From an uncultured Gemmatimonadales bacterium (GTDB taxonomy: Bacteria; Gemmatimonadota; Gemmatimonadetes; Gemmatimonadales; Gemmatimonadaceae), in contig OY969695.1 of assembly GCA_963701965.1 (NCBI GenBank), positions 4,960,001 to 5,024,000 of the forward strand: a DNA stretch of 64,000 nucleotides. Reading direction: 5' to 3'. Below the pieces are notes generated by a model. That model was given only the letters and a program-made list of their open reading frames with translations. It did not search any database and was not told where the DNA came from. A program made the position numbers and the translations under genes. Positions within the stretch are counted from its first letter, which is position 1; each line of letters begins with the position of its first letter. Shown here in pieces: positions 1 through 63,398 of the stretch.

Positions 1-1314
1 CGCGACCCAGCCGACGCCGGGGCGGATCGTCGGGGAGCGATACGATAGCGCGGCGGGGATCACCGAGTGGACGCTGTCCAACGGCGCCCGGGTGATCCTC
101 AAACCGACGCAAAACGATCCGGACGACGTGCAGATGCGGGCCTGGAGTCCCGGCGGGTTCTCCCTGATGCCCGACTCGCTGTTCTTCACCCCGGGCCGGA
201 TGGTCGGGACGCGTGATGACGGACGTTGGGGGACTCGGCGCGACGACGCACAATGTGCTGGAGCGCCAGCTCTCCACGACCGGGCTGCGCGACATGCGAG
301 TCAACATCGGCTACGCCGATCAGACCATCCGGGTCGCTGGCTCGCCCAAGGAACTGGAGCTGCTCTTCCAGAATGCTGCACCTCCAGCTCACCGCACCGC
401 TCATCGACACCGCAGCGCTGTCGGGGTGGAAGAGTCTGGCCAAGTGGCAGTTGACGGGGACGTCGATCGACGACCAGCTGAGTCGGCAGCTCGCCCTGAA
501 CGATCCCCGGTTGCAGCCGGTGTCGACGAGCATCGCCGAGCTGGCCACGGTCGCCAATCTCATGGCTGCCTATCGGAACCGCTTCGGGAACCCGGCGGGG
601 TTCACGTTCACCATCGTCGGCGCGGTGAGCCCAGAGGAAGCGCGCCCGTTGGTGGAACGGTACGTGGCCAGCCTGCCAGGCACGGGGACGACCGAGCCCG
701 CGAAAGCCACGCATGAGCACTACGTGTCGCTCAACCGGGTGAAGGAGATCCTCCACGAGACGGAGCCGGAGAAGGCGGTGACGTTCCTGGTGTTCGACGG
801 CCTGTTCCCGCCGGCGCCGCAAGACTACCTGCGGGAGCGGCAGCGGCTCTCGGCGCTGACCCATGTGTTGGACGAGCGGTTGCGCACGAGACTCCGGCAA
901 GAGTTGAGCGGCACGTACTCGCCGTTCACCACCAGCGAGACGTACGCGTTGCCGGAGGAGCGGTACCGGGTGCTGATCGCGTTCGACGCGGCACCGGCGC
1001 GGATGTATGAGTTGAACTGGGCCATGATGCAGGTGGTGGACTCGCTGCGGACGCACGGGGTGAGCGAGGCCGAAGCGACGCGGGCGGCGACGGTGCAGCG
1101 GCGGCAGCTGGAGACGCGGCTCCAGGACAACAATTACTGGATGGGGACGATCGGAACGTATGTCCGTCTGGGGATCCCGCTGGACGCGGTCCCGGCGCCG
1201 TACGGCGATCATGCGGTGACCGCGGAGGAGATCCGCGAGGCCGCCCAGCACTATCTCCCCGCCGATGCCTATTACCGCCTCACCCTCGTGCCCGCGGACT
1301 CCACCTCGCAATAG
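1..1314 (+). CDS. M16 family (PqqL-like) zinc protease, C-terminal part; 5' truncated by window; two apparent frameshifts (~208, ~372)
   Basis: ITEWTLSNGARVILKPT, then ELELLFQ/MLHL, FTFTIVG and LRTRLRQELSGTYS are typical M16 second-half segments. They are spread over three frames (ORFs at 92, 213, 226). Confidence 0.8.
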
Positions 1315-1387
1315 GGGTATCGCGCCCCTCGCGAGTCATCATCACGGGGACGATCAGCGGTCCCCGTTATCCCACTCTCCGAGGCCC

Positions 1388-1786
1388 ATGGTGCGCTCCA
1401 CTCTCATTCCTCTCGCCGCGCTGTCTCTGTCGCTCGCCGCTTGCGCCACCGGCTCGCACGGGTCGGCGGCCGACCCCGCTCCCGCTCCCGCCGCGACGTC
1501 CAGCGATCAGTCGCAGCTCACGAGTGGCGAGATCACGGCCGCCAACCTGCCGACCGCGTACGACCTGGTCGATCGCCTGCGCCGCCCATGGCTGCGACGC
1601 GATGCGACAACGGGCGGGGACGTCGTGGTCTACCAGGACGACCGGAATATCGGGACGGCCGAAAAGCTGCGCGACATCCCCGCCGCCACTGTAAGCGCGA
1701 TGCGCTATCTGGCGAACGCCAATGCCGTCCGGCGCTACGGGAATGACGTCAAAGGTGGCGTCATCGTCGTCGTCGTTCGACGGTGA
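1388..1786 (+). CDS. lipoprotein with stand-alone TonB-dependent-receptor plug-like domain
   Basis: ATG 1388 after GAGG; lipobox LAAC; plug-like motifs AYDLVDRLRRPWL, LRDIPAATVSAMRYL and RYG..GGVIVV; no barrel. Confidence 0.7.
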   Translation: MVRSTLIPLAALSLSLAACATGSHGSAADPAPAPAATSSDQSQLTSGEITAANLPTAYDLVDRLRRPWLRRDATTGGDVVVYQDDRNIGTAEKLRDIPAATVSAMRYLANANAVRRYGNDVKGGVIVVVVRR

Positions 1787-2799
1787 GGGCAGGGTTGATC
1801 ATGCAATCCCGGAGCCGTGACGGTCTCCTCGAGGCCGCGGCACGGCTCCGTTCCGAAGTCGCCAAACGGATCGTGGGGCAGGAGCGGGTGGTCGAGGAAG
1901 TGCTCATGGCGATGTTGGCGGGGGGGCACGCGCTCCTCGTCGGCGTCCCGGGGCTGGCCAAGACGCTCATGATTCACTCGATCGCGGAAGCCATGCGCCT
2001 CGACTTCCGGCGGATCCAGTTCACGCCGGACTTGGTCCCCTCGGACATCACCGGCACGGAGATCCTCGAAGAGGACGCGAGTGGCACTCGCTCGTTCCGC
2101 TTCGTCCGGGGCCCGGTATTCGCCAATATCGTCCTGGCCGACGAGATCAACCGCACGCCCCCCCGCACGCAGGCCGCGCTGCTCGAGGCCATGCAGGAAC
2201 GCCGTGTGACCGCGGCCGGGGAGACGATGCCGCTCCCGCGGCCGTTCTTCGTCCTGGCGACCCAAAACCCGATCGAGCAAGAGGGGACCTACCCGCTGCC
2301 CGAGGCGCAGCTCGACCGGTTCCTGTTCGACATCCGGATCGGGTATCCGACGCGGGCCGAAGAGGTGGGGATCCTGCGCGCGACCACGGCGGTCGACACG
2401 ACGGAGCTCAAACCCGTCCTGGACGCCGAGGAGACGCTCGCCCTGCAGCTAGCGGTGCGCCAGATCCCGGCGGCGGATCCGGCGCTCGAATATGCGGCCT
2501 CGCTGGCGAGGGCCACGCGGCCGGATGATCCCGAGGCACCGCCCATTGTCAAGAAGCATGTGCGATGGGGCGCCGGGCCGAGAGCCGGACAAGCACTCAT
2601 CCTCGGCGCCAAAGCCCACGCGCTGCTGCAGGGGCGCCATGCGGTCTCACCCGAAGACATTCGTCGGGTGGTACATCCGGTGCTGCGGCATCGCGTACTG
2701 GTCAACTTCGCGGCCGAAGCGGAGGGTGTCACCACCGAACAGGTCGTGACCGCGCTGTTGGCGCACGTGCCACCGCCGTCGAGCGGCCTGTCGCTCTAG
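1783..2799 (+). CDS. moxR: MoxR family AAA+ ATPase
   Basis: Walker A GVPGLAKT, RIQFTPDLVPSDITG, Walker B VLADEINR, ATQNPIEQEGTYPLPEAQLDRF. Start may be ATG 1801. Confidence 0.95.
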   Translation: MRAGLIMQSRSRDGLLEAAARLRSEVAKRIVGQERVVEEVLMAMLAGGHALLVGVPGLAKTLMIHSIAEAMRLDFRRIQFTPDLVPSDITGTEILEEDASGTRSFRFVRGPVFANIVLADEINRTPPRTQAALLEAMQERRVTAAGETMPLPRPFFVLATQNPIEQEGTYPLPEAQLDRFLFDIRIGYPTRAEEVGILRATTAVDTTELKPVLDAEETLALQLAVRQIPAADPALEYAASLARATRPDDPEAPPIVKKHVRWGAGPRAGQALILGAKAHALLQGRHAVSPEDIRRVVHPVLRHRVLVNFAAEAEGVTTEQVVTALLAHVPPPSSGLSL

Positions 2800-2812
2800 C
2801 GGCGCGCCGGGC

Positions 2813-3703
2813 ATGTCGTACGCGACGTTCGCGCCGGTGCTGGATGCGATTCGCGGGCTGAGTTGGCCCGCGCGACGGCGGGCCAAGAGCGCCATGGCCG
2901 GGCCGCACATCTCGCGGACCCGGGGAACGACCGCGGAGGTCATCGAGTACCGCCCGTACCGCCAAGGGGACGACCCCAAGCGCATCGACTGGAAACTGGT
3001 TGCGCGTACCGATCGCGTGTACATCCGCCTCTCGGAGGAGCGGACGATCGTTCCGACGATGGTGGTGCTCGACGCCAGTGCCTCAATGGCGTTTCCGGCA
3101 CCGGCAAACGACAAGTGGGAGTTTGCCCGGATCCTGGGGATCGGACTCGCGGAGACCGCGCGCAGAAACGGGGATCCGGTCGGGATGATGGTGGTGCACG
3201 CGGATGGCACGCGCAGCGTGCCACCGCGATCCCGGCGGACGGTGCTGGAGGAGATGATGCACGCGGTCGCCATCGATCCCGCGGGATCGAGTCCCTTGCA
3301 CCCCGCGGTGACCGCGGCCACGCGGCACTGCGCGCGCCTCGTGATCATCGCCGACTTTCTGGGTGACGCGGACTCGGTCATCACGGCGGCCCGTGGGTTC
3401 CTGGCCGGGGGCGGGGACGTATACGCCGTGCACGTCGTGGACGGCGCGGAACTGGATCCGGATCCCAAGCATCGACTGCTCACCGATCCGGAGTTGCCGG
3501 ACCTGCGCCGGCCCATGCCGCCCCGGGCACGCGCCGAGTATATCCGGCGGTTTGCCGAGTGGCGCGATACGCTGGCGGCGGAGTGGAGGCATGCCGGGGC
3601 CACGTACACGATGGTTGTCCCTGGCGCCGAACCCATTCGTGGGACGATCCGCCGGCTCATCACGCCCGCCATCTCATCCGGCGCTGCGCGCATCCGCCCC
3701 TGA
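2813..3703 (+). CDS. DUF58 / vWA-domain protein (MoxR partner)
   Basis: EYRPYRQGDDPKRIDWK motif and MIDAS-like VLDASASM, directly after moxR. Confidence 0.92.
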   Translation: MSYATFAPVLDAIRGLSWPARRRAKSAMAGPHISRTRGTTAEVIEYRPYRQGDDPKRIDWKLVARTDRVYIRLSEERTIVPTMVVLDASASMAFPAPANDKWEFARILGIGLAETARRNGDPVGMMVVHADGTRSVPPRSRRTVLEEMMHAVAIDPAGSSPLHPAVTAATRHCARLVIIADFLGDADSVITAARGFLAGGGDVYAVHVVDGAELDPDPKHRLLTDPELPDLRRPMPPRARAEYIRRFAEWRDTLAAEWRHAGATYTMVVPGAEPIRGTIRRLITPAISSGAARIRP

Positions 3704-4959
3704 CGTTCCTCGCCCCGGTCTTCTTCGTCGCCGGTCTCGGCGTCGCCGCGCTGGCGTTGGCGCTGCACTTCATCGTCACGCGCCAGCCGACGTCCAGTGT
3801 GTTTCCCACTGTGCGATTCGTACCGATCGACTCGGTGCGGATCACGACGATCGCGGCCCCGGAAGACCTGCTAGTGCTCCTGGTGCGGGCGCTGACCGCG
3901 ATCCTGATCGGCGCGGCTCTGGCGCGACCTATTGTGACGCCCTCGCGGCGCCCGGTCGCCCGGATCGTCCTCGCCAATGCGTCGAGCGCGACCCGGAACA
4001 TCGCGGAGCTGCGCGACTCCGTGCGGGCGCTCCTCGCTCCTGGCGACGTGCTGGTGCCGTTCGACAGCGCCGCGCACGCCATACGGCGTGCGGCGGCGGA
4101 TTCGGCGCCGAGGCTCACGCAGTCGGACCGTGATGGTCGCCTGTCGCCGGCGCTGATCGCAGCGCTGCGCGCCGCGTCCGCGATCCGGCATGAGGCCGAC
4201 TCGATCGAGCTGATCATTGTCTCGCCGCTGCTCGCTCGGGAGATCGATGGGGCAACGGCCGGGATTCGGGCGCTGTGGCCGGGTCGCGTGCGCCTCGTGC
4301 GCGTGGCGGCGGATCGCGACTCCAGCGGAATGTCCCAAGGGCTGACCGTCATCGCTGACGGCAATGACGCGGTGCGGGTCGCGGCCGTGGCGGCAGGGAT
4401 GGCGACGACGGACACCGGTGTCCGCATCGCGCGGGGAGTCGCGGTGGCGAGTGATAGTGTGTGGGCCGCCCAAGGCCGGCGGACACTCGTGCGATGGCCC
4501 GTGCGCGATGCGCCGCCGGGCTGGGTGTCGCGGCGCGTCGTGGACACCGTGGGTGCGGTCGTCGCCGGAGAGGCGGCGCTCGTCTTCCCGTTCGAGCGGC
4601 GGTGGCGGCCAAACCCGACGATGCGCGTGGTCGCGCGCTGGGTGGACGGGGAGCCGGCCGCCATCGAGCAACGCGTTGGTCTGGGGTGCATGCGGGATGT
4701 TGCGATTCCCGTGCCGACGCGGGGGGATCTGGTGCTGCGGCCGGCCTTTGGTCGCTTTCTCCGCGCGCTCGCCGCGCCCTGTCGCGCCGCGTCGCGCGGG
4801 CTCACCGTGGGGCCGGAGCAGCTCGGGTTGCTCAGCGGCGGCGGAAGACTGGCGGCGAGCCGCACGATTCCCGCGCCCGACGTGGTGGCGACGCCGCTCG
4901 TGCCCTGGCTCCTGGCTGCAGCACTCTTCATGGCCTTGCTGGAGATCTTCATCCGGTGA
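3700..4959 (+). CDS. BatA-domain membrane protein with degenerate vWA region
   Basis: N-terminus (M)TFLAP...ALHF...FPTVRFV is the BatA motif. Inferred CTG start overlaps the DUF58 stop; C-terminal TM helix. Confidence 0.8.
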   Translation: MTFLAPVFFVAGLGVAALALALHFIVTRQPTSSVFPTVRFVPIDSVRITTIAAPEDLLVLLVRALTAILIGAALARPIVTPSRRPVARIVLANASSATRNIAELRDSVRALLAPGDVLVPFDSAAHAIRRAAADSAPRLTQSDRDGRLSPALIAALRAASAIRHEADSIELIIVSPLLAREIDGATAGIRALWPGRVRLVRVAADRDSSGMSQGLTVIADGNDAVRVAAVAAGMATTDTGVRIARGVAVASDSVWAAQGRRTLVRWPVRDAPPGWVSRRVVDTVGAVVAGEAALVFPFERRWRPNPTMRVVARWVDGEPAAIEQRVGLGCMRDVAIPVPTRGDLVLRPAFGRFLRALAAPCRAASRGLTVGPEQLGLLSGGGRLAASRTIPAPDVVATPLVPWLLAAALFMALLEIFIR

Positions 4960-6874
4960 CGCTCGCGGGTCGCGTGCGGCGAGCGCGCCAGCGGCTCGTG
5001 GGCGCCGTGCTCGTGGCGGCCGTGCTCTGGCCGTCTCGGGCGCGATCGTCGTCATCCTCGTCGCCGCCAGCGCGAACGCGATGGGGTGGCCTATCCCATC
5101 CGACGGGATCGTCCCGATCGCCGTCGGGGCGGCACTGGTGGCGGCCGCCGTCGTCCTGTGGCGCGGGCGCGCCGCGCGGTCGGTCGAGCGCGTCGCGCTG
5201 TGGATCGAGGAGCGAGATCCGCGACTCCAGTATGCGCTCATCACGGGGATCGACGCGGGGCTCGCGCCGGTCGACCAACACGCCGAGCTCCATGCGGCGG
5301 CCGACAAGGCGGATATCGAAGGCGTCGTTGGGCGCGCGGCAAGGCGTCTGCTCGCGCGCGCCGGCGCGGCATGCGTGCTGTCGCTGATTGCCTTAGGTCT
5401 CGCGTGGCCCCGCGCCCTGTTCAAGGCCACGTCGGCGCGTCGCCCGACGACGGGCGCCGAGATCGCCAACAGACTCACCAGGGTCACGGCGCGCGTCGTG
5501 CCTCCGGCGTACAGCCGATTGCCCGACCACACGATCGCCGAACCGAGCAATGTCGAGGCACTGATCGGAAGCGCCGTCATGCTGACGGGGAGGGGGACGG
5601 CCGACGGCGTGATGGCCAACGTAGACGGTTTGTCCAAGGACGCTCAGGCCGACCATGGCGGGTGGACCATTGGGGTCACCATGCCCAAGGCCCCCGCGGT
5701 CCTCGAACTGCGCGACCGGAATTTCAAGCGCCTGGTGGCGCTACAGCCGGTCGTGGACTCGGCGCCCGTCGTGAAACTCGCCCTGCCGCTGCACGACACC
5801 ACGTATCAGACCGTGCCCAGAGGGAAGCTCGCCGTGGAGGCCGGGCTCACCGACGACGTCGGGCTCGCGTACGGGTACGTCGAGTACATGCTATCGACCG
5901 GCTCGGAAGAGAACTTCGAGACCGAGCAGGTCACTGGGCGAAAGGTCGCCTACGACAATGCGCGACAGGGAACACTCCGCGAGTCGATCGATCTCGACAC
6001 ATTAGGGCTCAAACCCGGCAGTGTCCTCCATATTCGTGTCGTGGCGTTCGACTACAACAATGTGACCGGGCCGGGGAAGGGCGTCTCGGAGACGCGCACC
6101 CTCCGCATCGCCGAGCCGGTCGACTCGGCGTCGATCAACGCGGCGCCGCCGTTGCCCATCGACTCAATGTGGATCAGCCAGCGGCTGCTGAACATGAAGA
6201 CCGACACCCTGATCCAGCATCGGCGCGTGCTCCAGCAGCCAGCCCTCGTGCACACGTCGACTGCGTACAGCAACGCGCAGGAGGACATCCGGCAACGCGC
6301 ATTGCTGGTCATCGCCGAGCTCGAGGACAACGGCGTGGGAGGTTCCTTCGCGACCGATGCCAGCAAGATGCTGCGCACTGCCGTGGACCTCATGTGGACG
6401 GCCCGCGAGGACCTCGCCGTGACGCACCCCGACTCGGCCATGCCGCCCATGAAGAAGATCCTGGCGATTCTCGACGAGTTGCGCCTCGCGCACCGGTACT
6501 ACCTGCGCGGACTCCTGCGACCCGTCGCCGTCAACACCGAACGCGTGCGCATGACCGGGAAGGACAGCGTCGCCATCGGCACCCGCACTGCAAGAATGCC
6601 AATCGGCAATGTAAACGCATCCCTGGCGGCCCGCATCGCCGCGGCGGCGGCACTGGCGCACCGCACGCCCGCCGCGGCCGCCGACTCGCTCACCTTCATT
6701 CGCGTGGCCGCGCTGTCGACCGCGCCAACCGTCGGGAACGCGCTGGGCCTGGCGATCGATCGGCTGCGCCGGGGCGAAGCGGCCGACAGCGCGTTGACTC
6801 AGGTGCGGCGTGCGCTCGCGCCGCGGGCGAGCGTCGTCGGCGCCCGAGCGCCGTGGGGCGGCGTCGTCCCATGA
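4956..6874 (+). CDS. large membrane-anchored protein of MoxR clusters (DUF4175-like); apparent 1-nt deletion near 5030
   Basis: GTG 4956 gives [25 protein letters not shown], continuing in the frame of ORF 4364..6874 with TM helices, IEERDPRLQYALIT, VVPPAYS, DDVGL and a helical C-terminus. Confidence 0.65.
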
Positions 6875-7482
6875 GTCAGTTCGTGTTCGCCACCGCGGAG
6901 TATGCCTCGGGTGACTGGGAAAGCGCGCCGTCGCTTCCCGAAGCGGTCATCAATGCCGTGGCCAAGTACACGACGATTGACGTCGCGCCCGTCGGTGTGG
7001 TGGTCAAGATCTCGTCCCAAGATCTGTTCAATTACCCGTTCGTGTGGTTGACCGGGCATCTCCCGGTGCGATTCACGGATCAGGAGCGGCGAAACATCAA
7101 GCGGTTCGTGGAACGCGGCGGGCTGATCATGATCGACGACCACAATCACGACATCACGGGCGTGTTCCACAAGACCGCCACCGAGGAGATCGAGCGCATG
7201 TTCGGCAAGATGACCCGGTTGCCGAAGACGCATGAGCTCTATCGCTGCTTCTTCGAGTTCCCGGACGGTCCGCCGAACACGCACCACGAGCTCAATGGGT
7301 ATGGCGACGACCTGCTGCACGCGTACCTCGACGCGGTACTCGTGCGCGATCGCATTGGGCTTATCTACAGCAGCAAAGACTACAGCTCCGAATGGAACTT
7401 CCACGCGGAGACGAAAAAGTTCATGCAGCAGGATCCCACGAAGTTCGCGGTGAATCTGATCGTATATGCGCTCACGCGCTGA
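6871..7482 (+). CDS. DUF4159 domain protein
   Basis: ATG 6871; YASGDW, YPFVWLTGH, FVERGGLIMIDDH, AVNLIVYALT. Confidence 0.88.
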   Translation: MSQFVFATAEYASGDWESAPSLPEAVINAVAKYTTIDVAPVGVVVKISSQDLFNYPFVWLTGHLPVRFTDQERRNIKRFVERGGLIMIDDHNHDITGVFHKTATEEIERMFGKMTRLPKTHELYRCFFEFPDGPPNTHHELNGYGDDLLHAYLDAVLVRDRIGLIYSSKDYSSEWNFHAETKKFMQQDPTKFAVNLIVYALTR

Positions 7483-8725
7483 GCACCTCCTGCGAATCGT
7501 GGCGATCGGGACGCTCGCCTGGTATCTCGCCTACGTGCTGCGGGAGCGCCGGCGGGGTGTCGACGAGGCGGCCGCGTCGGCCGGCCTGCATGCAGCGCTC
7601 GCGCGCTGGAGCACCGTGACGGCCCCCGCGCGGGTGCACGTCGACTTGGCGCACCCGCCCGATGGACAGGAACGCGACTGGCTCGCGGCCTTGGGCGGTG
7701 CCGGTACGGAAGTCGGGTGGAGTGGGACGACGCTGGCGCCGACGGCCATCGAGGAGGAGCCCCGGGCGGACCCGGCGCGGAGCGTTGACGTCGGAGTGGC
7801 GGCGCCGCAGGGCGCGATGGTGACGCTCTCCGATACGCTCGGCGTGCTTGACAGCGCGCGAGCCAGCGCCACGGGCGTGTCAGCGCATGTGCCGGGATCT
7901 CCTCCCAGGGTCGACGTCCGGGTAGGACCCGTCGTCGCCCGCGCCGCGCTGCACGATTCGCTTGCGCTACGGGAACTACTCGTGCTGGGCGCCGCGACCT
8001 GGGAGACCAAGTTCACCGTGGCAGCGCTCGAGGAACGCGGCTGGAAAGTCGACGCGCAGGTCGCGCTCTCGCCGAAACGTACGGTGCGCCAAGGAGCGAT
8101 TCCCGAGATCGACACGGCGCGATATTCGGCGGTGCTGGCGATCGACAGCACGGCGGTCCCGTACCGGGACCGCATCGTGCGCTTCGTACGCTCCGGTGGG
8201 GGCCTGGTGCTGTGGTCGCAAGCGGCAACGGCGTTCGCGGCGATCGCGCCAGGGCTGGGTGGGACGCTAGTAGAAGATGATGGGGCGGCTCCAGCCGACA
8301 GCGCTCCCCGCCGCGCGGTCGGTCTGATGCCCATCGTGGGACTGGCATCGGACGACGTGGTCACCGAGCGCCGAGGCGATTTGGTGAGCGTCGCGGCCCG
8401 ACGGGTTGGCTTGGGCCGAGTGATCGAGACCGGCTATACGACGTCCTGGCAATGGCGGATGGCAGGCGGAGACGATGCGCCCGACCGGCATCGGGCCTGG
8501 CTGGCCGGTCTCGTAGCCGGCGTGGCGTACACGGGTCGGTCGGCCATCGCGGCGGCGCCCACGGACGTCGCGCCCCTCGCCTCGCTCATCGATCACCTCG
8601 GCCCGGCGTCGATCGGCCACGGTGGGATGGATACTCCCGACCATCTGGCGTGGTGGGTGCTTGGGATCCTCGCCGTAGCGCTCGTGGTCGAGTGGGCATC
8701 GCGACGCATGCGTGGCGTGAAATAA
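7466..8725 (+). CDS. membrane protein with class I glutamine-amidotransferase-like domain (MoxR cluster)
   Basis: N- and C-terminal TM helices; WETKF, FVRSGGGLVL, GLGRV...SWQWRM and EWASRRMRG are typical of the last gene of such clusters. Confidence 0.65.
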   Translation: MRSRAEHLLRIVAIGTLAWYLAYVLRERRRGVDEAAASAGLHAALARWSTVTAPARVHVDLAHPPDGQERDWLAALGGAGTEVGWSGTTLAPTAIEEEPRADPARSVDVGVAAPQGAMVTLSDTLGVLDSARASATGVSAHVPGSPPRVDVRVGPVVARAALHDSLALRELLVLGAATWETKFTVAALEERGWKVDAQVALSPKRTVRQGAIPEIDTARYSAVLAIDSTAVPYRDRIVRFVRSGGGLVLWSQAATAFAAIAPGLGGTLVEDDGAAPADSAPRRAVGLMPIVGLASDDVVTERRGDLVSVAARRVGLGRVIETGYTTSWQWRMAGGDDAPDRHRAWLAGLVAGVAYTGRSAIAAAPTDVAPLASLIDHLGPASIGHGGMDTPDHLAWWVLGILAVALVVEWASRRMRGVK

Positions 8726-8749
8726 ATGCCTGGTCGCATCATACAGGAT

Positions 8750-9376: not shown

Positions 9377-9415
9377 CAAATAGGGGAAACCGGCCCGTCG
9401 TCGGTCTATCCATAC

Positions 9416-10804: not shown

Positions 10805-10832
10805 GACTAGGATCAAGCTCAACAATCCCGCC

Positions 10833-11595: not shown

Positions 11596-11644
11596 ATTGT
11601 TGGGCGGCCCGGCCAGGAGCAGACGACAAAACATAACCCGGCGT

Positions 11645-52174: not shown

Positions 52175-52178
52175 CGGC

Positions 52179-53025: not shown

Positions 53026-55143
53026 TGCCACACCCGCTCGCTGGAACCATCGCCGAGTACGTCTGGGCGGTCCCGCTCCTCCCGCTGCTCGGTTTTGTCA
53101 TCAACGGCCTGCTGTCCCTCTTCACCGCCGGCCACCCCGGTCCCGCCGACCCGTCGTCGGGACACGATGCCCACGACGCCGCCCACGACGCCGCCCACGA
53201 CGACCACGCGGCCGCACCGTCGCGGCCCCGCTTTGGGGGATTGGTCAGTTTTGTAGGCCCCGCGGTGCTCGTGCTGGCGTTTGGATTAGGGCTGGCGATT
53301 TTCATGGCGGTGCTGGGCGCCAGCCCGGCCACGCCGTTCGTCCAGACCTACTACCCGTGGATGCCGGTCGGCGACCTCCAGGTCAACGCCGCGTTCCAGG
53401 TCGACCAGCTGTCGATCCTGATGGTGCTGGTGATCACGGGCGTGGGAACGCTGATCCACCTCTTCAGTGTCGGCTACATGCGCGAAGACCCGGGCTACGC
53501 CCGCTACTTCGCGTACCTGAACTTGTTCGTGTTCTTCATGCTCGTCCTGGTGCTCGGCGCCAACTACCCGATCCTCTTCATCGGGTGGGAGGGCGTGGGC
53601 CTCTGCTCGTATCTCTTGATCGGTTTCTGGTTCTCCGTCGAGGCCAACGCCGACGCCGGCAAGAAAGCGTTCATCGTCAACCGCATCGGCGATTTCGGCC
53701 TCTTGCTGGCGATGTTCATGCTGTTCGCGAACCTGGGCTCGCTGGATTTCACCAACGTCTTCGCCAACGCGACGAGCTTGGGCGCGAACTCGCCGTTGGC
53801 CACGACGATCTGCCTGTTCTTGTTCCTGGGGTGCGTCGGCAAGAGCGCCCAGATCCCGCTCTACGTGTGGCTACCGGACGCGATGGCCGGCCCGACGCCG
53901 GTGTCGGCCCTCATCCATGCCGCGACGATGGTGACCGCCGGCGTCTATCTCATCGCCCGCAGCTCCGCGCTGTTCGCGATGGCGCCGGCCGCCAGCCTCA
54001 CAGTCTGCGTGGTCGGCGGTGTGACCGCCCTGTTCGCCGCCACGATCGGCCTCAAGCAATGGGACATCAAGAAGGTCCTGGCCTACTCCACGATATCCCA
54101 ACTCGGCTACATGTTCGTCGGCGTCGGCGCCAGCGCCTACGTAGCCGGCATGTTCCACCTCGTCACCCACGCGTTCTTCAAGGCGCTGCTGTTCCTCGGC
54201 GCCGGCTCCGTGATCTACGCGATGCACGCCGCCTACCACGCCACGCACAACCACGACGACGCCCAGGATATGCGCAACATGGGCGGCCTCCGGCATGCCA
54301 TGCCGTGGACGTGGGCGCTCATGTGGATCGCGACGCTCGCTATCTGCGGGATTCCGCCTTTCGCCGGGTTCAGTCTCCAAGGACCAGATCCTGGGCACCG
54401 TGTTCGAGCGCGCCCAGGGATCCGCCTCGCGGACGCGCATTGGCTCGGTATCCCGGGCCGCATCGTGCTTGTACGCCGTCTACGCCATGGCACTCATCGC
54501 GGCGCTGCTGACGGCGATCTACATGACCCGTCTCATGCTCTACACGTTCCATGGCAAGAACCGGACAGGGGAAGCGGAACGCGCCCACCTGCGGGAAGCG
54601 CCGTGGATCATGACCGGCCCGCTCGCGGTGCTCGGGCTCTTGAGTCTCTTCGGTGGTTTCCTGAACGTGCCGTCGTTCATCCCGGCGGAACTCCTGCCCA
54701 CGGGCAAGCTGGCCGAGTGGCTCGGTCCCGTCGTCGGGCCGTCCAGCGAGTCCGACCCGTCGACCGCCCTCATCCTCGCTGTCGTCGCGGTCGCGATCGG
54801 CGTCATCGGGATCGGCATCGCCGTGGCCCGCTGCAAACCCGATCTCCTCGGACTGCCGGCGACCACTCCCGAGCGGCCGATCGAACGCCTCCTCGAGCAC
54901 AAATACTACGTCGATGAGATCTACGACCGGATCATTGTCCGGCCGTTGGTGTGGCTGTCGCGCACCGTGCTGTGGAAAGGCGTCGACGGCTTGATCGATG
55001 GGACGGTCAACTTCGCGGGGTGGATCTGGCGCGGGCTTGGGGCCGCCGGCTCGGCGATCCAGTCCGGACAGGTCGGCACCTATGCCTGGGTGCTCGTCGC
55101 CGGCGTGCTCGCCGTCATCGGCGTCTTCTCATTGAACTACTGA
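53025..55143 (+). CDS. nuoL: NADH-quinone oxidoreductase subunit L; apparent indels at ~54373, ~54425, ~54470
   Basis: GWEGVG, NRIGD, KSAQ.PL.VWLPDAMAGPTPVSALIHAATMV, HAFFKALLFL; C-terminal part in ORF 54295..55143. Confidence 0.95.
53169..53204 (+). repeat. 12-bp tandem repeat x3 in nuoL (AHDA)
   Basis: gcccacgacgcc gcccacgacgcc gcccacgacgac. Confidence 0.85.
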
Positions 55144-55156
55144 GGCTCGGTAGCCT

Positions 55157-56797
55157 GTGACGAACTGGATCCTGCCCGCACTACTGCTCGTTCCGCTCGC
55201 GGGCGCGCTGGTCATCTTGCTCGGCACCGCGCGCGATCCGGGCGGCGATGCCGCGCGCGGGTTCGCCCGATGGACTGCCTTGTTGACGCTGGTCGTCGAG
55301 TTTCTGCTCTCGGTTACCCTGTGGACCGGCTTGCCGGGAGTCTTCGGGGGATTCGACGCCACGAACTCGGGCTGGCAGTTCTCGTACTCGGTCTCTTGGA
55401 TCCCGACCTGGGGCATCTCGTTCTCGTTAGGTCTCGATGGCGTCGCGCTGGTGATGGTGCTCCTCACGACCTTCATCATGCCGTTGGCGATCCTCGGCAG
55501 CTGGACGAGCATTCGCGACAAGGCGCCGGCCTACTACTCCCTCATGCTCGTGCTGACCATGGGGATGCTCGGCGTATTCATGGCGCTCGACTTGTTCTTG
55601 TTCTACCTCATGTGGGAGACCATGCTGGTGCCGATGTACTTCATCATCGGCATCTGGGGCGGGGAACGCCGCATGTACGCCAGCATCAAGTTCTTTATCT
55701 ACACGATGCTCGGCTCCCTCCTCATGCTGGTGGGCATCCTGTACATCGGGTTCCACGCCTGGGAGCACGGCGGCCTCTTCTCAATGTTCTCGGCCCCGCA
55801 GGCGCCGAGCTTCGCCTTCGATGACGTGGCGCGCTCGCTGTCGGGGGCGTCGCCCAATCAGCTGGGACCCGTCGCCATCCGATGGCTGTTCGGCGCGTTC
55901 TTCCTGGCGTTCGCCATCAAAGTGCCCATGTTCCCGTTTCACACCTGGCTTCCCGATGCCCACGTCGAGGCACCGACGGCCGGTTCAGTGATTCTGGCCG
56001 GCCTCATGCTGAAGATGGGCACGTTCGGATTCATTCGGCTCGCCATGCCGCTCTTTCCTGGTGCCGCCCTCGATCCCACGATCCGCGGCATCATTCTCGC
56101 GCTGGCGGTCGTCGGCATTGTGTACGGCGCCCTGGTGGCGCTGGTGCAGCCCGACTTCAAGAAACTCGTGGCGTACTCCTCGGTCAGCCACTTGGGATTC
56201 GTGATGTTGGGTCTCTTCGCGCTCACGCTCCAGAGCGTGCAGGGCGCGATCCTGGTCATGATCAATCACGGAATCTCGACCGGCGCGCTCTTCTTGTTGA
56301 TCGGGTTCATCTACGAGCGCAAGCACTCGCGGCTCATCAGTGCCTACGGGGGAATTGCCCGCGCCGTCCCGCTCTTCGCCGCCGCGCTGACGTTCGTGTC
56401 GCTCTCCAGTATCGGCTTGCCGGGACTCAATGGATTCGTCGGCGAGTTCCTGGTGCTCCTCGGCGCGTTCCGCACCGAACCGTGGCTGGTGTTGATCGCC
56501 ACGACGGGTGTGATCTTCGCCGCCGCCTACCTGCTATGGGCCATCCAGCGGATCTTGTTCAATCCGCTGGACAAGCCCGAGAACGCGCGCCTGCTCGATC
56601 TCAATTGGCGTGAGATCGGGACGCTCGTGCCGCTGGTGGTCGTCATCATCTGGCTCGGCGTCTATCCGGCGCCGATCCTGCGCTTGACCGAAGGGTCGGC
56701 GGCGCGGTTCGTCAACACGGTCTCCCGCGGGGCCGCCAAGGGCACCCTCGGGCCGATGCCCATCCGGGCGGCGCTCCAACAACGGGTCCGGCGATGA
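55157..56797 (+). CDS. nuoM: NADH-quinone oxidoreductase subunit M
   Basis: KVPMFPFHTWLPDAHVEAP, AYSSVSHLG, GFVGEF. Confidence 0.97.
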   Translation: MTNWILPALLLVPLAGALVILLGTARDPGGDAARGFARWTALLTLVVEFLLSVTLWTGLPGVFGGFDATNSGWQFSYSVSWIPTWGISFSLGLDGVALVMVLLTTFIMPLAILGSWTSIRDKAPAYYSLMLVLTMGMLGVFMALDLFLFYLMWETMLVPMYFIIGIWGGERRMYASIKFFIYTMLGSLLMLVGILYIGFHAWEHGGLFSMFSAPQAPSFAFDDVARSLSGASPNQLGPVAIRWLFGAFFLAFAIKVPMFPFHTWLPDAHVEAPTAGSVILAGLMLKMGTFGFIRLAMPLFPGAALDPTIRGIILALAVVGIVYGALVALVQPDFKKLVAYSSVSHLGFVMLGLFALTLQSVQGAILVMINHGISTGALFLLIGFIYERKHSRLISAYGGIARAVPLFAAALTFVSLSSIGLPGLNGFVGEFLVLLGAFRTEPWLVLIATTGVIFAAAYLLWAIQRILFNPLDKPENARLLDLNWREIGTLVPLVVVIIWLGVYPAPILRLTEGSAARFVNTVSRGAAKGTLGPMPIRAALQQRVRR

Positions 56798-58335
56798 AAT
56801 TCGACCTGTCGCACCCAACCGAGCTGATGGCGGCGCTCGGGCCGGACCTCATCCTCGTCGTTGGCGCCACGCTGCTCCTGATCCGCGCCGCCTGGCGCAC
56901 GGAGAGCGACGCGCATCAACGGTCCGTGGGCACGTGGTCCCTCTGGGTGCTGCTGGCGACCATGGCGGCCACGATCGCGTACTGGAGCTTCGGCTGGTCC
57001 GCGGCGCCGGGCGTGATCGCCGTCGATGCGTTCCGGTGGGCCAGTGACATGATTGTGCTCATCGGCGCGTTCTGCACGATCGCGCTCAGCATGGACTACA
57101 ACGCCCGGGAAGGGATCACGGTCGCCGAGTCGCACGTGCTCGTGCTCTTCGCCACCAGCGGCATGATGTTGCTGGCCGCCGCCCGCGATCTCATGATCGT
57201 GTTCCTCGGCATCGAGCTCATGTCGATTGCCGTGTACATCCTGGCCGGACTCAATCGCCGCAGCGCCAAGTCGGCGGAAGGCTCCCTCAAGTATTTCCTG
57301 CTGGGCGCCTTCTCGACGGCGTTTCTGCTGTACGGCATCGCGTTCCTCTATGGCGCGACCGGGGCGACGGACCTGGCGACGATCTACAGCCGGATCAACC
57401 AATACAACCTGTTTGGCGAGCCGATCCTGCTCATCGGCATCGCGTTGCTGGTGATCGGGTTCGGGTTCAAGATCGCGGCCGTGCCGTTCCACATGTGGGC
57501 GCCCGATGTCTACGAAGGCGCGCCTACGCCGATCACCGCGTACATGGCGGTCGCGGTGAAAGCGGCGGCCTTCGCGGCCTTCCTGCGGGTGTGGATCGAA
57601 GCGTTTCCCTATCTGGGCCCCTCCCGCGGTTTGTTCTACTACTGGCACAACGCCGTGTGGGGCTTGGCCGTGGCGACGATGATCGTGGGCAACGTCCTGG
57701 CGCTCGTCCAACGCAACATCAAGCGTATGCTGGCGTATTCGAGCATCGCGCACGCGGGCTACGTGCTGGCCGCCCTCGTCGCCGCCGACAGCTTCGGCGC
57801 CTCGGCGTACGTGTTCTATCTCCTGGCGTACACGCTGGCGACGATGGGCGCGTTCGCCGTCGTCATCGCCCTCGGCAACACCGGCGAGGCGCATCTGGAC
57901 CTGGACGACTACGCCGGTCTGTGGCGGGCGCGTCCGGGCCTGGCGTTGGCCATGAGCGTGTTCATGCTGGCGTTGCTGGGCTTCCCGGTCTTCGGCGGCA
58001 TCGGATTCCTCGCCAAGTGGTACGTGCTGGAGGCAACCCTGCGCTCGCCGGCGCTCCCGCAAGTGATGCTGTCGACGGTGATTGTCCTCACCAGCGTCAT
58101 CTCGGCGGGATACTATCTGCGCGTGGTCCAGATCATGTTCATGCGCCCACGGCCAGAACAGCCGCCGGCGAGCGCCAGGCCCGGGATGCTGACCGAGGCC
58201 GTCGTCTACGGCTCCGTCGTGCTCGTGCTCGTGCTCGGCCTCTTGCCCTATCAGCTGATCCGCCTCACGGAACGCAGCGTCCCGCAGGCGCAGGTCGTCG
58301 CCACGCCGGCCGCCCCACCCGTCGCCACGCCATGA
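56794..58335 (+). CDS. nuoN: NADH-quinone oxidoreductase subunit N
   Basis: EGSLKYF, FKIAAVPFHMWAPDVYEGAP, KRMLAYSSIAHAGY. Confidence 0.97.
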   Translation: MKFDLSHPTELMAALGPDLILVVGATLLLIRAAWRTESDAHQRSVGTWSLWVLLATMAATIAYWSFGWSAAPGVIAVDAFRWASDMIVLIGAFCTIALSMDYNAREGITVAESHVLVLFATSGMMLLAAARDLMIVFLGIELMSIAVYILAGLNRRSAKSAEGSLKYFLLGAFSTAFLLYGIAFLYGATGATDLATIYSRINQYNLFGEPILLIGIALLVIGFGFKIAAVPFHMWAPDVYEGAPTPITAYMAVAVKAAAFAAFLRVWIEAFPYLGPSRGLFYYWHNAVWGLAVATMIVGNVLALVQRNIKRMLAYSSIAHAGYVLAALVAADSFGASAYVFYLLAYTLATMGAFAVVIALGNTGEAHLDLDDYAGLWRARPGLALAMSVFMLALLGFPVFGGIGFLAKWYVLEATLRSPALPQVMLSTVIVLTSVISAGYYLRVVQIMFMRPRPEQPPASARPGMLTEAVVYGSVVLVLVLGLLPYQLIRLTERSVPQAQVVATPAAPPVATP

Positions 58336-58345
58336 CGGAGTCGAC

Positions 58346-59729
58346 ATGACCGTCTCGCCGGGGATCTTCCGGTCTTACGATGTGCGGGGCATCGTCGGGC
58401 AAGATCTGACGGCCGAGGCCGCCGGTGCAGTGGGGCGTTCGTACGCCGCCCTCCTCGCGGAACGCGGCATCACCGGCGCCGTCGCCGTCGGACGGGACAA
58501 CCGGCCCAGCGGTCCGATGCTGCGCAATGCCCTGGTGTCGGCGCTCACCGTGTCCGGCGTCGACGTGGTCGACATTGGCGTCGTGCCCACGCCGCTCCTC
58601 TATTGGGCACTGCACCACGAGTCGGTGGTTGGCGGCATCCAGATCACCGGATCGCACAATCCGCCCGAATACAACGGGTTCAAGTTGTCGCTGGGCACCG
58701 GGTCGTTGCATGGCGACGCCATCCAGCACCTCTACGGACTGGCGCGTGACGGTGTGTCGCTGCGCGCCGATCGGCCCGGCACCGTGCGCCACGCGCAAGT
58801 CATCGACCGGTACGTCGACGACATCGTCGAGCGCATCGGTCCGCTCCCCCGCCGTCTCAAAGTCGTGTTTGATTGCGGCAACGGCGCCGGCGCTCTCGTC
58901 GCCGGTAAACTCTTCGGGAAGCTCGGCGTCGACGCATCGTATCTGTTTTGCGTCAGCGACGGCACGTTCCCGAACCACCATCCCGATCCGACGGTCGTCG
59001 AGAACCTCCACGACATCATTCGGGAGGTGAAGGCGCAAAAGGCCGATCTCGGCATCGCGTTCGACGGCGACGCCGACCGCATCGGGGTCATCGACGCCCG
59101 GGGCGAGATCATCTGGGGCGACCACGTGCTGATCGTGTACGCGTGGGACGCCCTGCGGCGCACGGGCACTGGCCAGCCGATCATCTTCGACGTGAAGTGC
59201 TCGCAAGCGCTCCCCATGGCCGTCGCCGCGGCCGGCGGGGTGCCGGTCATGTGGAAGACGGGGCACTCGCTGATCAAAGAGAAGATGAAGGAGATGCACG
59301 GCCCCGTGGCCGGCGAGATGTCGGGGCACATGTTCTTCACCGAGGGATTCTACGGGCACGACGACGCGCTCTATGGCGCCGCGCGGTTGATCCGTATCGT
59401 GGCCGAGGCGGGTCGTCCGCTCGACGCCATGCTGTCGACGGTGCCCAAGTTCGTGTCGACGCCCGAGCTCCGCGTCGACTGTCCCGATGATCGGAAATTC
59501 GCGCTCGTCAATGAAGCGGTGGCCCACTACAAGATCCGGCACGACGTCGTGGACGTCGACGGCGCGCGCGTGCTGTTCGGGGACGGGTGGGGGCTGATTC
59601 GCGCCTCCAACACCCAACCGATCCTCGTGCTGCGCTTCGAGGCCAATTCGCCGGAGCGGTTGGCGGCCATCCGGGCGGACATGGAGGGGATGGCTCAGCC
59701 AGCGCGGCGTGCGCGTTCCCGCGTCTTAG
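58346..59729 (+). CDS. phosphomannomutase/phosphoglucomutase; apparent extra G near 59686
   Basis: FRSYDVRG, TGSHNP, FDGDADR, GEMSGH, RASNT. The corrected end MEGWLSQRGVRVPAS* stops at 59729. Confidence 0.95.
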
Positions 59730-59736
59730 GATACAC

Positions 59737-62226
59737 GTGACGCGCCGGCGCCTGGGGTTCCTCGCGGTCGTCACCCTCGCCGGCTTGTTGATCACTGGCC
59801 GGATCGCCGCCGGCCTGTTCGTCCAGTACGAGTGGTTCGATGCCCTCGCCGCGCGCGACGTGTGGATGGCGAAAATCGGCAACGACCTGCTGCTGCGGGC
59901 CGCGACAGCGGCGCTGGCGGCGCTTTTCGCGCTGGGCAACCTCTACGCCGTGCGCCGCTCCATTGTGTCGGTCGTGTTGCCACGCCGGCTCGGCGACCTG
60001 GAGATCGGCGAAGAAGTGCCCGGCCGCTACCTGAACGGCGCGGTCGTCGTTCTGTCGATCGCCTTGGGCCTCCTGCTGGCGATCCCCCAGCATGGATGGA
60101 TCGAGCTGGCGCTGGCCCGCCACGGCGTGCCGTTTGGCGAGACCGATCCCTATTTCGCCCGGGACCTGGGGTTCTTCGTGTACTGGCTGCCGCTCGAGGC
60201 CGAGTTGTACCTGCGCGCGCTGTGGGTGCTGGCCGCGGTGACCGTGGTGGTGATCGTGCTGTACTTCTTCTTCACGCCCGGTCTGCGCTACGAGAAGTCG
60301 CGGCTCACGATGTCGGCCCACGTGCGCCAGCACGTCGCTGTCCTCGCTCTCTTCGCGTTCGGCGCGCTGGCCTGGAGCTACCGGCTGGACATGTACGGCG
60401 CCCTGAGCAGCGGGCGCGGCCCGTTGGGGGCGTTCTCGTACGCGGACAAAGCCGCGGTCATCCCCATCAATCTCGTCCTGTCGTTCGTGACGCTGGCCGC
60501 CGGCGTCGCCATTACCATCACCCTCTGGCGCAACCAACGGCGCCCGGCGCTCGCGTTGGTCACGCTCGTGCTCATCGTGCCGTTCATCGCCTTTCGCGTG
60601 GGGCCCAAGCTCGCGCAGCGATTCAGCGCCGAACGCGATCCCGCGGTGCGCGAGCGCCCCTACCTGTCGATCCGCGCCATCTACACGAGCCAGGCCTTTG
60701 GCGCCGACTCGGCCCACCTGCCGGACACGTTCCTCGCCCTCGCCAGCCAGGCCGACCTGGCGCACAACGTCTCGGTGTGGGACCCGGCGGCCATCGTGCA
60801 GTCGCTCGCCCGGGCGCGGCGCGGCGCCACGGTATTCGACAACGTCGCCTGGCACCTGTCGCCGGCCGGGCCGGTGGCGACCGCCGTGGAGCGACTCCAG
60901 GGGGCCACGCAATGGACGGCGATCAGCGTGCTGGCCACCGTGCCGGACGACCGCGGCGCCATCCTGCGCGTCGACGCGCTCGGGCGCCCGGACCAGACCG
61001 ACGTCACGCTGCCCCCGGCTTTGATCGTCGATGGCGCTGGATCGGACACCGTCATCGCCGACTCCGCGGGCGTCATAGCGGCGCCGAGCGTGGACGGATG
61101 GCTGACGCGCGTCGCGCACGCCTGGAGCGCGCAGAACCTGCGCCTCCTCTCCGACGACGCGCCGGACCGGGACGCACGCATCGTGAGCGTACGCGACGTG
61201 CGGGCCCGCCTCCGCGCCCTCACGCCATTTCTCGCGCAAGGATCGACCATCTGGCCCGCGGTCGAGGCCGACTCGCTGTGGTGGGTCGTCGATCTGTACG
61301 CGGCGTCCGACGACTACCCGCTCAGCCAGCATCTCCTGATCGGGGACGCGGAGCACAGTTATTTCCAGCACACCGCCACAGCGTTCGTGCACGCCTACAC
61401 CGGCCGCACCCTCCTCGTGCGCGACCGCGTACTGGATCCCATCGGCCAGACGTGGGTCAACGCCTTCGGCTCGTTGTTCACCACGTGGGACCGCATGCCG
61501 CCCGGTCTCGCCGCCCAGGCGCCGCCGCGCATCAATGCGGCGCTGGCCGCCGCCGCCAGCTATGGTCGCCGCTCAACGGAGCTCGGGGACGCGTCGGCGC
61601 CCATCCACGCCCTGTCGCTGCCAAATGCGGATACGGCGCTGGCCGGCGGTCAGAATGCTCCCGTGGCGTGCTTCGCGCTGCCGGCCGCGGGCAGTCCCTG
61701 CACCTGGTCCATCCCGCTGCTCGACGCGCAGGAGCGCGTCGCGGGGCTCATCGTCGCCACCGGCGGATTGCACCCGGCCGTGCGGCGATTCCGCACGGCC
61801 CGATCGCACGGACGGCGTTGGACGGACGTCGTCGACCGCTTGGACCGGGCGCCCGACTCGGCATCGGCGCCGCCAGGCGGCGCGCGCGTCATCGACGGGC
61901 GCATCCGCCCCGTGCCGTACCGGAGCGGCGTGGCGTTCGTCCAGCCGCAGTTCGATTGGCCGGCCAATGCGGCGCCCACGCTGGCCCGGGTGAAGGTCGT
62001 CACCGACGACACATCGGGGAGCGGGGTGACGCTGGCGCAGGCATTGGGTGTCGAGCCGCCCGCGCCGCGGCTCGCCACGCCTCCGGTGACCGCGGCGGAG
62101 TTTCACGCGCGCGTCGCCGGTCTGTACGACGCGATGCAGGCCGCGCTCAAGCGCGGCGACCTGACAACTTTTGGCGCCGAATTCAACGAGCTGGGACGCC
62201 TGCTCGGCCGGTCGCGAAATCCCTAG
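59737..62226 (+). CDS. UPF0182 family membrane protein
   Basis: GTG 59737; FGETDPYFARDLGFFVYWLP, ERPY, WVVDLY..SDDYP, ALKRGDLTTFG. Confidence 0.85.
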   Translation: MTRRRLGFLAVVTLAGLLITGRIAAGLFVQYEWFDALAARDVWMAKIGNDLLLRAATAALAALFALGNLYAVRRSIVSVVLPRRLGDLEIGEEVPGRYLNGAVVVLSIALGLLLAIPQHGWIELALARHGVPFGETDPYFARDLGFFVYWLPLEAELYLRALWVLAAVTVVVIVLYFFFTPGLRYEKSRLTMSAHVRQHVAVLALFAFGALAWSYRLDMYGALSSGRGPLGAFSYADKAAVIPINLVLSFVTLAAGVAITITLWRNQRRPALALVTLVLIVPFIAFRVGPKLAQRFSAERDPAVRERPYLSIRAIYTSQAFGADSAHLPDTFLALASQADLAHNVSVWDPAAIVQSLARARRGATVFDNVAWHLSPAGPVATAVERLQGATQWTAISVLATVPDDRGAILRVDALGRPDQTDVTLPPALIVDGAGSDTVIADSAGVIAAPSVDGWLTRVAHAWSAQNLRLLSDDAPDRDARIVSVRDVRARLRALTPFLAQGSTIWPAVEADSLWWVVDLYAASDDYPLSQHLLIGDAEHSYFQHTATAFVHAYTGRTLLVRDRVLDPIGQTWVNAFGSLFTTWDRMPPGLAAQAPPRINAALAAAASYGRRSTELGDASAPIHALSLPNADTALAGGQNAPVACFALPAAGSPCTWSIPLLDAQERVAGLIVATGGLHPAVRRFRTARSHGRRWTDVVDRLDRAPDSASAPPGGARVIDGRIRPVPYRSGVAFVQPQFDWPANAAPTLARVKVVTDDTSGSGVTLAQALGVEPPAPRLATPPVTAAEFHARVAGLYDAMQAALKRGDLTTFGAEFNELGRLLGRSRNP

Positions 62227-62246
62227 CTCCCACCCATACTTCCCGC

Positions 62247-63398
62247 ATGAACATACACGAGTACCAGGCGAAGGAGATTCTTCGGGCGGCCGGCGTGCCG
62301 GTGCCGCCCGGCGAAGTCGCCACGACGCCTGAGCAAGCCGAATCCATCGCCCGCCAGTTCGGCGGAACCGTCGTCATCAAGGCCCAAGTGCACGCCGGCG
62401 GCCGCGGCAAAGCCGGCGGCGTCAAGCTCGCCAAGACACCGGCGGAAGCGCGCGACGTCGCGGCCCGCATCCTCGGCCTCGTGATCAAGGGCCTGCCGGT
62501 GCGCAAAGTCCTGGTGACGCCGGCCGCGGACATCGCGCACGAAGCATACGTCGGCCTCATCGTCGACCGGGCCTCCAAGCGCGTCGTCTATATGGTGAGT
62601 CCCGCCGGCGGCATCGACATCGAGGAAGTCGCCGCATCGACGCCGGAAAAGATTCGTCGTTTGCCGATCGATCCCCGGTATGGCCTGTTGCCATTCGAAG
62701 CGCTCTCCCTGGGCTTCTTTCTGTACCGCGACGCGCCACAGGCGCGCGCGGCGGCGCGCATCATGACGCAGATGTACCACGCGTTCATGAACAGCGGCGC
62801 GTCGCTGACGGAGATCAATCCGCTGGTGACGCAACCCGATGGGTCGCTCGTGGCGGTAAATGCCAAGATGGTGCTCGACGACAACGGTCTCGAGCGGCAT
62901 CCGGCGCTCGCCGCGCTGCGCGACGAAGATTCGGAAGATCCGAGCGAGACGGCCGCGCGGAAGGCCAACCTCACGTTCATCAAGCTCAATGGCAACGTGG
63001 GCTGCGTGGTCAACGGCGCCGGCTTGGCGATGGCGACGATGGATCTCGTGCAGTACTACGGCGGTCAGCCCGCGAACTTCCTGGACATTGGCGGATCGTC
63101 CAACCCGGAGAAGGTGATCAATGCCCTCCGGATCATTACGGCGGATCCCAAGGTCAAAGTCATTCTGTTCAACATCTTCGGTGGGATCACGCGCACCGAC
63201 GACGTCGCCAACGGCATCGTCCGCGCCTTGGATCAGTCTCCGCCGACCGTCCCACTGGTCATTCGCCTCACCGGAACCAACGAAGAAGACGCCGTGAAAA
63301 TTCTTGCTGCGCGTGGCCTGACGGCCATGACCGATATGGATGCCGCTGTGCGCGATGCCGTGGCGCTGGCGACGACGGCGTCGGGGGTGCCCGCGTGA
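62247..63398 (+). CDS. sucC: succinyl-CoA ligase beta subunit
   Basis: [45 protein letters not shown]. Confidence 0.98.

Follow-up and report, generated by a model that had tools for sequence, protein, structure and literature searches.

Strand-biased consensus errors at GATG in a Gemmatimonadaceae genome point to a probable adenine mark, with a solitary D12 methylase as candidate writer

The genome of an uncultured Gemmatimonadales bacterium (GCA_963701965.1, contig OY969695.1, in the following G000) is a single contig of 5.12 Mb with 67% GC, 95% completeness and 4% contamination, and one contig of such span implies a long-read assembly. The names of its homologs, too, indicate Gemmatimonadaceae. 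An earlier reading of its positions 4,960,001-5,024,000 (the window, 64,000 nucleotides), made from the letters alone, had noticed genes broken at the tetranucleotide GATG, or CATC on the opposite strand, and had attributed the lesions to a DNA modification. The frameshifts and substitutions of G000 are almost certainly assembly or consensus errors, and a base modification at GATG very probably causes them, being the best explanation for lesions which are motif-specific, hit genes intact in relatives, and leave a foreign stretch of the same contig clean. The mark is probably N6-methyladenine (m6A) on the A of GATG, and its predicted writer is P0001, a solitary adenine methylase of the D12 class.

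Frameshifts were called with a custom codon-aware aligner, and kept only if third-position divergence followed the reference frame on both flanks. Tested genome-wide against 2.48 Mb out of the 5.7 Mb of G003, a genome of the same genus, G000 shows 92 events in 308,342 testable codons (82 are +1, 7 are -1, 3 are +2). The exact lesion, a doubled A, accounts for 42 of the 82 +1 events, as GATG to GAATG (18) or CATC to CATTC (24), with no clear strand preference (25 vs 17). Enrichment over other 4-mers, originally proposed as a check, is marked (37/82 against a background of 0.071, p=4e-21). The base preceding the motif matters, lesions per counted sites being 37/1478 at AGATG (2.4% A-doubling), 4/5492 at CGATG, 1/2515 at GGATG and 0/1988 at TGATG. 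Among sister words, no lesion was found in G000 at GATC (0/18,435), CATG (0/6814), GACG (0/18,500) or GACGTC (0/1684); the 3' part of the motif is firm, as nothing occurs at GATC, GATA, GATT and GACG. In a reference-free scan, +1 frame steps were found at 92/668 AGAATG, 30/1073 CGAATG, 11/747 GGAATG and 2/500 TGAATG, control words being at about 1% and AGAATC (6/614) at background. Extrapolation to the whole genome gives roughly 180-200 motif insertions. The other 40 +1 events include 13 in one error island and 27 isolated ones, of which 13 lie within about 5 nucleotides of GATG (background 0.17, p=2e-4); in a few cases the inserted base lies beside GGATG or TGATG. Some frameshifts, among them those of the error island and certain ones in the window, are away from the motif. 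Insertion of a base into TGATG to give TCGATG was rejected, its frequency being at background level in the reference-free test. The island (positions 470300-473500) holds 17 frameshifts devoid of the motif and is probably poorly polished; G003 has a similar one on contig C3 near 137 kb.

Point substitutions at the same motif, also claimed by the sequence-only reading, are borne out at the genome scale. Asp codons GAT followed by G read AAT in 49 cases in G000 vs 17 in G003 (420 codons are intact in both), and 35 of the 49 are CGATG; when C follows, the figures are 11 vs 8 (718 intact). On the whole contig CGATG occurs 12,326 times forward and 15,349 reverse, CAATG 6021 and 3118, the control CAATC 3088 and 3049. 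This is the top strand asymmetry among 5-mers (z=30), and its sign is constant along the host part of the contig regardless of GC skew. About 3,000 CGATG have been miscalled CAATG, some 20% of forward CGATG, on the contig plus strand only, at a rate independent of the next bases out. False Asp to Asn changes are accordingly found in 45 plus strand vs 4 minus strand genes. As the bias is bound to the arbitrary strand of the contig over 4.8 Mb, it denotes consensus errors rather than mutation. Once these words are masked, no residual asymmetric word is seen (maximum z about 3), and plain k-mer over- or under-representation does not reveal the GATG motif. Changes of the adenine to G are not significant (Met GTG 18 vs 8, p=0.08), and Ile to Thr changes show no motif effect. 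A GGATG to GAATG substitution was rejected, as the high share of ATT after C and before C is found also in fragmented relatives, and is strand-neutral.

Within the window, each of the eight sites named earlier was found in the sequence. Compared with G001, G002, G003, G005, G006 and G007, events form 8 clusters in 15,906 codons of G000 and 8 in 19,950 codons of G003; summed over the other five genomes, none occurs in 60,319 aligned codons. Relatives bear out the +1 frameshifts at 17761, 29657, 46195, 46232, 48733 and 54373, one relative (G001) that at 59686, and the reference-free test the +1 step at 372. The A of GATG is doubled at five of the eight sites (372, 17761, 29657, 46232 and 48733), while 54373 and 59686 are less clear. 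At 46195 a doubled C separates two CATCT copies, a recurrent class with four more cases elsewhere in G000. At 54373 the sequence is CAGTC where relatives have TTC TTC, in a noisy patch; at 59686 either an extra G precedes GGATG, or an A creates the motif. That lesions are confined to GATG/CATC was too strong a claim, since the -1 at 54424 is off-motif, and the +1 at 54468 is merely near CATCG. The features of the window, all given on the plus strand, are as follows.

371..375, plus: GAATG, i.e. AGATG with doubled A, false +1 frameshift in an M16 peptidase gene (sequence; reference-free +1 step; Pfam PF05193 on the downstream frame)
15415..15419, plus: CAATG for CGATG, false Asp to Asn (Asp in 4 relatives)
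17760..17764, plus: GAATG, AGATG with doubled A, false +1 frameshift (CAG ATG in G001 and G003)
27204..27208, plus: CAATG for CGATG, false Asp to Asn (Asp in 3 relatives)
29274..29278, plus: CAATG for CGATG, false Asp to Asn in pgk (Asp in 4 relatives)
29656..29660, plus: GAATG, CGATG with doubled A, false +1 frameshift in pgk (G003, G001, G007; Pfam PGK)
33442..33446, plus: CAATG for CGATG, false Asp to Asn (Asp in 4 relatives)
46190..46202, plus: extra C between CATCT copies in the nuo operon; on the other strand, G doubled 2 nucleotides 5' of AGATG (5 relatives)
46230..46234, plus: CATTC, CGATG with doubled A on the minus strand, false +1 frameshift in nuoD, as named by the sequence-only reading (5 relatives)
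48731..48735, plus: CATTC, AGATG with doubled A on the minus strand, false +1 frameshift in nuoF, named likewise (6 relatives)
54371..54375, plus: CAGTC, +1, probably in CATC with uncertain motif link, first of three frameshifts within 100 nucleotides in nuoL, named likewise (TTC TTC in 5 relatives)
54424..54471, plus: -1 and +1 frameshifts, local noise and not a motif lesion (codon-aware alignment to relatives)
59686..59692, plus: +1 at GGGGATG, ambiguous, in a phosphoglucomutase/phosphomannomutase gene (G001; Pfam)
62858..62862, plus: AAATG where 3 relatives have Asp, which may be a miscall of AGATG or a genuine change
62987..62991, plus: CAATG for CGATG, false Asp to Asn (Asp in 4 relatives)
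1..64000, plus: strand imbalance by word counts, CAATG 65 forward and 35 reverse, CGATG 167 and 242; controls CAATC 40 and 30, CGATC 255 and 273

The M16 peptidase gene shows a further frame change near 213 (195-240), adjoining TGATG.

Two observations argue for a modification. The contig begins with 325 kb (positions 1-325000) that deviate in codon usage, find hardly any match in G003, end at a GC-skew break, carry a third (extra) class Ib aminoacyl-tRNA synthetase gene, and encode a PlsY 77-80% identical to that of Caldimonas sp. They are likely foreign, Burkholderiales-like DNA, brought into the same assembly by a chimeric join, perhaps from more than one organism. Here CGATG occurs 913 times forward and 914 reverse, CAATG 140 and 111, for an odds ratio of 1.26 (p=0.09) vs 2.48 in the rest of the contig. 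Absence of the signature from a foreign stretch of the same contig makes a generic caller error unlikely. The other observation comes from G003, which hosts a second lesion class, GACGTC to GAACGTC, at 59 of 987 counted sites (0 of 1684 in G000), together with substitution of the G preceding the adenine (GACGTC to AACGTC, 26 in G003 vs 2 in G000). G003 encodes a methylase of the beta class which was not found in G000 and appears to be AatII-like, and M.AatII is described as methylating G(m6A)CGTC in a passage of PMC3287169. Errors at GACGTC and the M.AatII site, taken together, indicate that a doubled A and a G to A change just before it mark m6A in this data type. Of the chemistries listed by the sequence-only reading, m6A on the A of GATG is retained, and methyl-C, deazaguanine and phosphorothioate are set aside, as no genes for them were found. 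Its other statement, that flanks vary and the motif has just 4 bp, holds in part: a 4-bp word is likely, but flanks matter, AGATG and CGATG being hit frequently, GGATG rarely and TGATG nearly never. The beta-class methylase gene of G003 (L257, 1453-2307) is present also in G001, G004, G005, G020 and G021, and the neighbouring open reading frames include no nuclease.

The responsible gene had been placed outside the window, and the candidate does lie there.

2304930-2306024 of the G000 contig, minus: P0001, solitary D12 adenine methylase, 364 amino acids (family profile, motifs)

P0001 matches PF02086 (63 bits vs a cut-off of 22), and carries the S-adenosylmethionine-binding motif I DAFAG near residue 30 and motif IV DPPY at 234-237, invariant in 28 sequences. 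Its predicted structure (mean predicted local distance difference test score, pLDDT, 84.5) has E. coli Dam as best match in the PDB, at E 3e-4 and a low template modelling score (0.34); a solved-structure homolog was not found by sequence. P0001 is a single domain encoded by a single open reading frame, it gives one tblastn match in the genome and has no second copy. Its neighbours are an LpxR-family gene and a gene for a sigma factor of the extracytoplasmic function type. No nuclease gene flanks it in G000, and other housekeeping genes are found beside the D12 gene at five further loci scanned. Absence of a second copy and of an adjacent nuclease predicts methylation of one strand. G000 encodes four more DNA methylases or pieces thereof: an Eco57I-like protein of 1061 amino acids, a Type III Mod, a Type IIG enzyme and a truncated D12 piece. 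Since the GATG lesion is shared by G003, and P0001 and the Eco57I-like gene are the sole DNA methylases found in both genomes, the other three are ruled out as writers. The Type III Mod (L039, 2878901-2881015) has no neighbour of Res size among called genes, the Type IIG enzyme is at 3784207-3786675 (L040), and the truncated D12 piece (L043, 963497-963709) is next to conjugation-like genes; none of the three has a detectable error motif.

Should P0001 methylate one strand of GATG, native nanopore reads through G-m6A-TG would be miscalled, showing G to A if C precedes and a doubled A if A precedes. The CATC strand would be read correctly, leaving a split pile-up from which the polisher would often keep the wrong call, in this genome on the contig plus strand. 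The motif would be GATG, its visibility being set by context, and the role of the mark would most likely be that of an orphan protective or regulatory signal, not of a restriction system.

The distribution among Gemmatimonadaceae fits P0001 better than the Eco57I-like gene. Among 301 genomes of the family (including five unpublished ones: G012, G051, G224, G243 and G318), P0001 homologs are found in 75, spread over 24 of 64 genera, and the Eco57I-like gene in 283. An excess of forward over reverse YCAATGY was detected in exactly five genomes: G000 (1969/890), G057 (715/430), G073 (869/418), G108 (1910/1120) and G129 (1236/702). The same five lose forward YCGATGY, belong to five genera, and all carry the D12 gene. 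When genomes of 10 contigs or fewer are considered, a set containing no unpublished genome, the signature is present in 5 of 8 with the D12 gene vs 0 of 23 without (p=3.3e-4), or 4 of 7 vs 0 of 23 if G000 is excluded (p=1.3e-3). All 23 signature-negative genomes carry the Eco57I-like gene.

Several points weigh against P0001 as writer of m6A at GATG. G030 (422/348, weak, z=2.7), G190 (750/738) and G290 (497/465) bear the gene and show no clear signature; G024 and G121 similarly carry it without signature. In G003 and G155 the excess over kin is unstranded, the YCAATGY/YCGATGY ratio being 0.39 vs 0.19-0.23 and 0.21 vs 0.13-0.15, respectively. The p-values are overstated because kin are not independent, and the 23 negatives may stem from other sequencing platforms; the GACGTC enzyme, considered as a control for signature-negative genomes, is present in 2 of 70 genomes. 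The AatII identity of the G003 enzyme comes from a PADLOC model match and the motif, not from a named sequence. P0001 is just 26-30% identical to enzymes of known specificity, the homology resting on annotation labels, and its fokIM match is a divergent protein of 430 amino acids. The modification is read from assembled sequence, and GGATG and TGATG sites are nearly free of lesions.

This last point bears on the motif. Errors are visible only after A and C, and neither error type arises unless a G precedes the adenine, hence MGATG (M = A or C), SATG and NATG are also conceivable, and the extent of the word appears to be GATG, MGATG or wider. The same enzyme and the same m6A with a motif other than plain GATG is a minor though real possibility: strong errors are restricted to AGATG and CGATG, and the closest homologs that bear a label are linked with CATG and GGATG. 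In the wider forms CATG would be invisible, either for lack of the G required by the error types, or because callers know CATG. Against this, some insertions adjoin GGATG or TGATG, and visibility depends on the 5' base, A and C themselves differing; a symmetric SATS is made less likely by CATG (0/6814), GATC (0/18,435) and AGAATC, which is at background (6/614). It is unlikely that the writer is instead the Eco57I/Type IIG-like methylase (2258048-2261233), its specificity having shifted to GATG in one clade. The gene is common to G000 and G003, and on asymmetric words enzymes of Type IIG typically modify a single strand; yet it resides in 282 of 300 other family genomes, including all 23 contiguous signature-free ones, and the catalytic core of the G073, G108 and G129 proteins, which was compared in place of the specificity region, is no closer to that of G000 than those of several negatives. 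At this locus (L041, 2258048-2263452) the methylase, which has an NPPW motif, is followed by a helicase-like gene of 747 amino acids; the methylase is found also in 15 of 16 genomes of two other families, an unusual persistence for a restriction-type gene.

A generic weakness of base-callers or polishers at unmodified CGATG and AGATG is very unlikely. It would account for a lesion common to G000 and G003, the controls may come from other platforms, and a G to A bias even in amplified DNA is mentioned in 10.64898/2026.01.14.699587. The lesion is however absent from the foreign 325 kb and from 23 of 23 contiguous genomes lacking the D12 gene; Ile C-ATT-G is found at 0/79 and 0/59 in the long-contig records L189 and L193, vs 18% in G000, and GACG, GATC and CATG are free of lesions in G000. 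About as improbable is another chemistry, such as a phosphorothioate at G-A, 7-deazaguanine, or 5- or 4-methylcytosine in CATC. A G to A change equals C to T on the opposite strand, thus the error alone cannot name the modified base. The search for methylases and for dnd/ssp and dpd clusters, suggested with the earlier reading, returned the methylases listed above and nothing of the rest: no C5 methylase (PF00145) in G000, no DndC in G000 and G003, no 3'-phosphoadenosine 5'-phosphosulfate reductase gene of the DndC/SspD type in G000, no DpdA in the five signature genomes, and one tRNA-guanine transglycosylase only. G000 is 95% complete, and its sole N6/N4 match is the Type III Mod, which was not found in G003. 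Real mutations, be they pseudogenes or the work of a motif-directed mutator, have a negligible chance. The broken frames themselves are all that speaks for them; over 4.8 Mb the bias goes with the strand of the contig, pgk and other core genes are affected, and relatives are intact. Methylation of GATG by P0001 is, among these readings, the one retained.

Errors of this kind are known from nanopore data. Passages of 10.64898/2026.01.14.699587 describe strand-biased G to A calls at methylation motifs in R10 data, and attribute such calls in Acinetobacter pittii to a CATCTC motif; according to part of PMC12392509, methylation-linked errors strike some motif copies only. G000 has in common with these reports that errors are at or beside the putatively methylated motif, predominantly G to A, strand-biased and partial; it differs in that about 20% of plus strand CGATG and about 2% of AGATG are wrong, and the motif can be read from the strand imbalance of the assembly alone. 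The doubled A, the main indel in G000, is not described in those passages. As a class the artefact is known; that it is here read out to a new methylase specificity is likely.

M.AatII provides a control, as G003 shows the same two error types at the adenine of its site; it belongs to the beta class, has a palindromic 6-bp site and was not found in G000. M.FokI (GGATG/CATCC) methylates the adenine in GATG to m6A, using two domains for the two strands of a 5-bp site. P0001 matches positions 1-333 of a PADLOC model of 646 positions, presumably of FokI type; it has one domain and no second copy, and GGATG is among the contexts least affected. M.HpyI (hpyIM) and M.NlaIII are, like P0001, D12 enzymes of similar size, the ATG core of their site fits, and P0001 is 30% identical to a protein labelled "ulcer associated", a label tied in a passage of PMC4687069 to the CATG-specific hpyIM and to GGATG predictions. 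They recognize palindromic CATG and usually have a nuclease partner (NlaIII/iceA1; same passage), whereas the word of G000 is asymmetric and no nuclease is adjacent. At CATG, 6814 sites of G000 show no lesion, though methylation of this word might pass without any miscall. In the same phylum, the methylome of Gemmatirosa kalamazoonensis has three m6A motifs, RGATCY, ATGCAC and CCAGN7TCA (PMC3974934), GATG not being among them; for marine Gemmatimonadota a preprint recalls no motifs (10.64898/2026.06.24.734251). Literature searches, which did not cover REBASE and preprint supplements, where the motif may be listed, returned no GATG m6A motif and no report of a P0001-type enzyme. GATG is missing from the main text of PMC11649196, PMC12392509, PMC13340088, 10.64898/2026.06.24.734251 and 10.1101/2024.04.29.591623, and has one irrelevant mention in 10.1101/2020.02.18.954636; six supplements of PMC4752239 contain no whole-word GATG, CATC, SATS or Gemmat, such matching being blind to longer taxon names.

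The analysis yields an enzyme and a motif whose pairing can be tested, with a specificity absent from the literature searched. Classical restriction-modification cannot rely on an asymmetric word marked on one strand, which would leave a regulatory or broad anti-restriction role. The wider proposal falls somewhat short of being probable: a NlaIII/FokI-like solitary methylase, present in 24 of 64 sampled genera, may mark one GATG strand, at about 60,000 sites or one every 85 bp, having neither a nuclease nor a counterpart that acts on CATC. This would be a new specificity, and methylomes and their writers might be mapped from the strand imbalance of deposited assemblies without raw data. If true, a widespread soil lineage with hardly any cultured members would carry a single-strand mark of unusual density. 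As a method, one forward/reverse word count per genome singled out five affected genomes among 301. The quality of this species-representative genome also calls for caution: roughly 3,000 substitutions and about 200 motif insertions in it are false, some 325 kb of it is apparently foreign, and the false Asp to Asn bias recurs in at least four more genomes of the family. In G057, G073, G108 and G129 false CGATG to CAATG calls amount to hundreds to thousands, and would bias proteins and trees.

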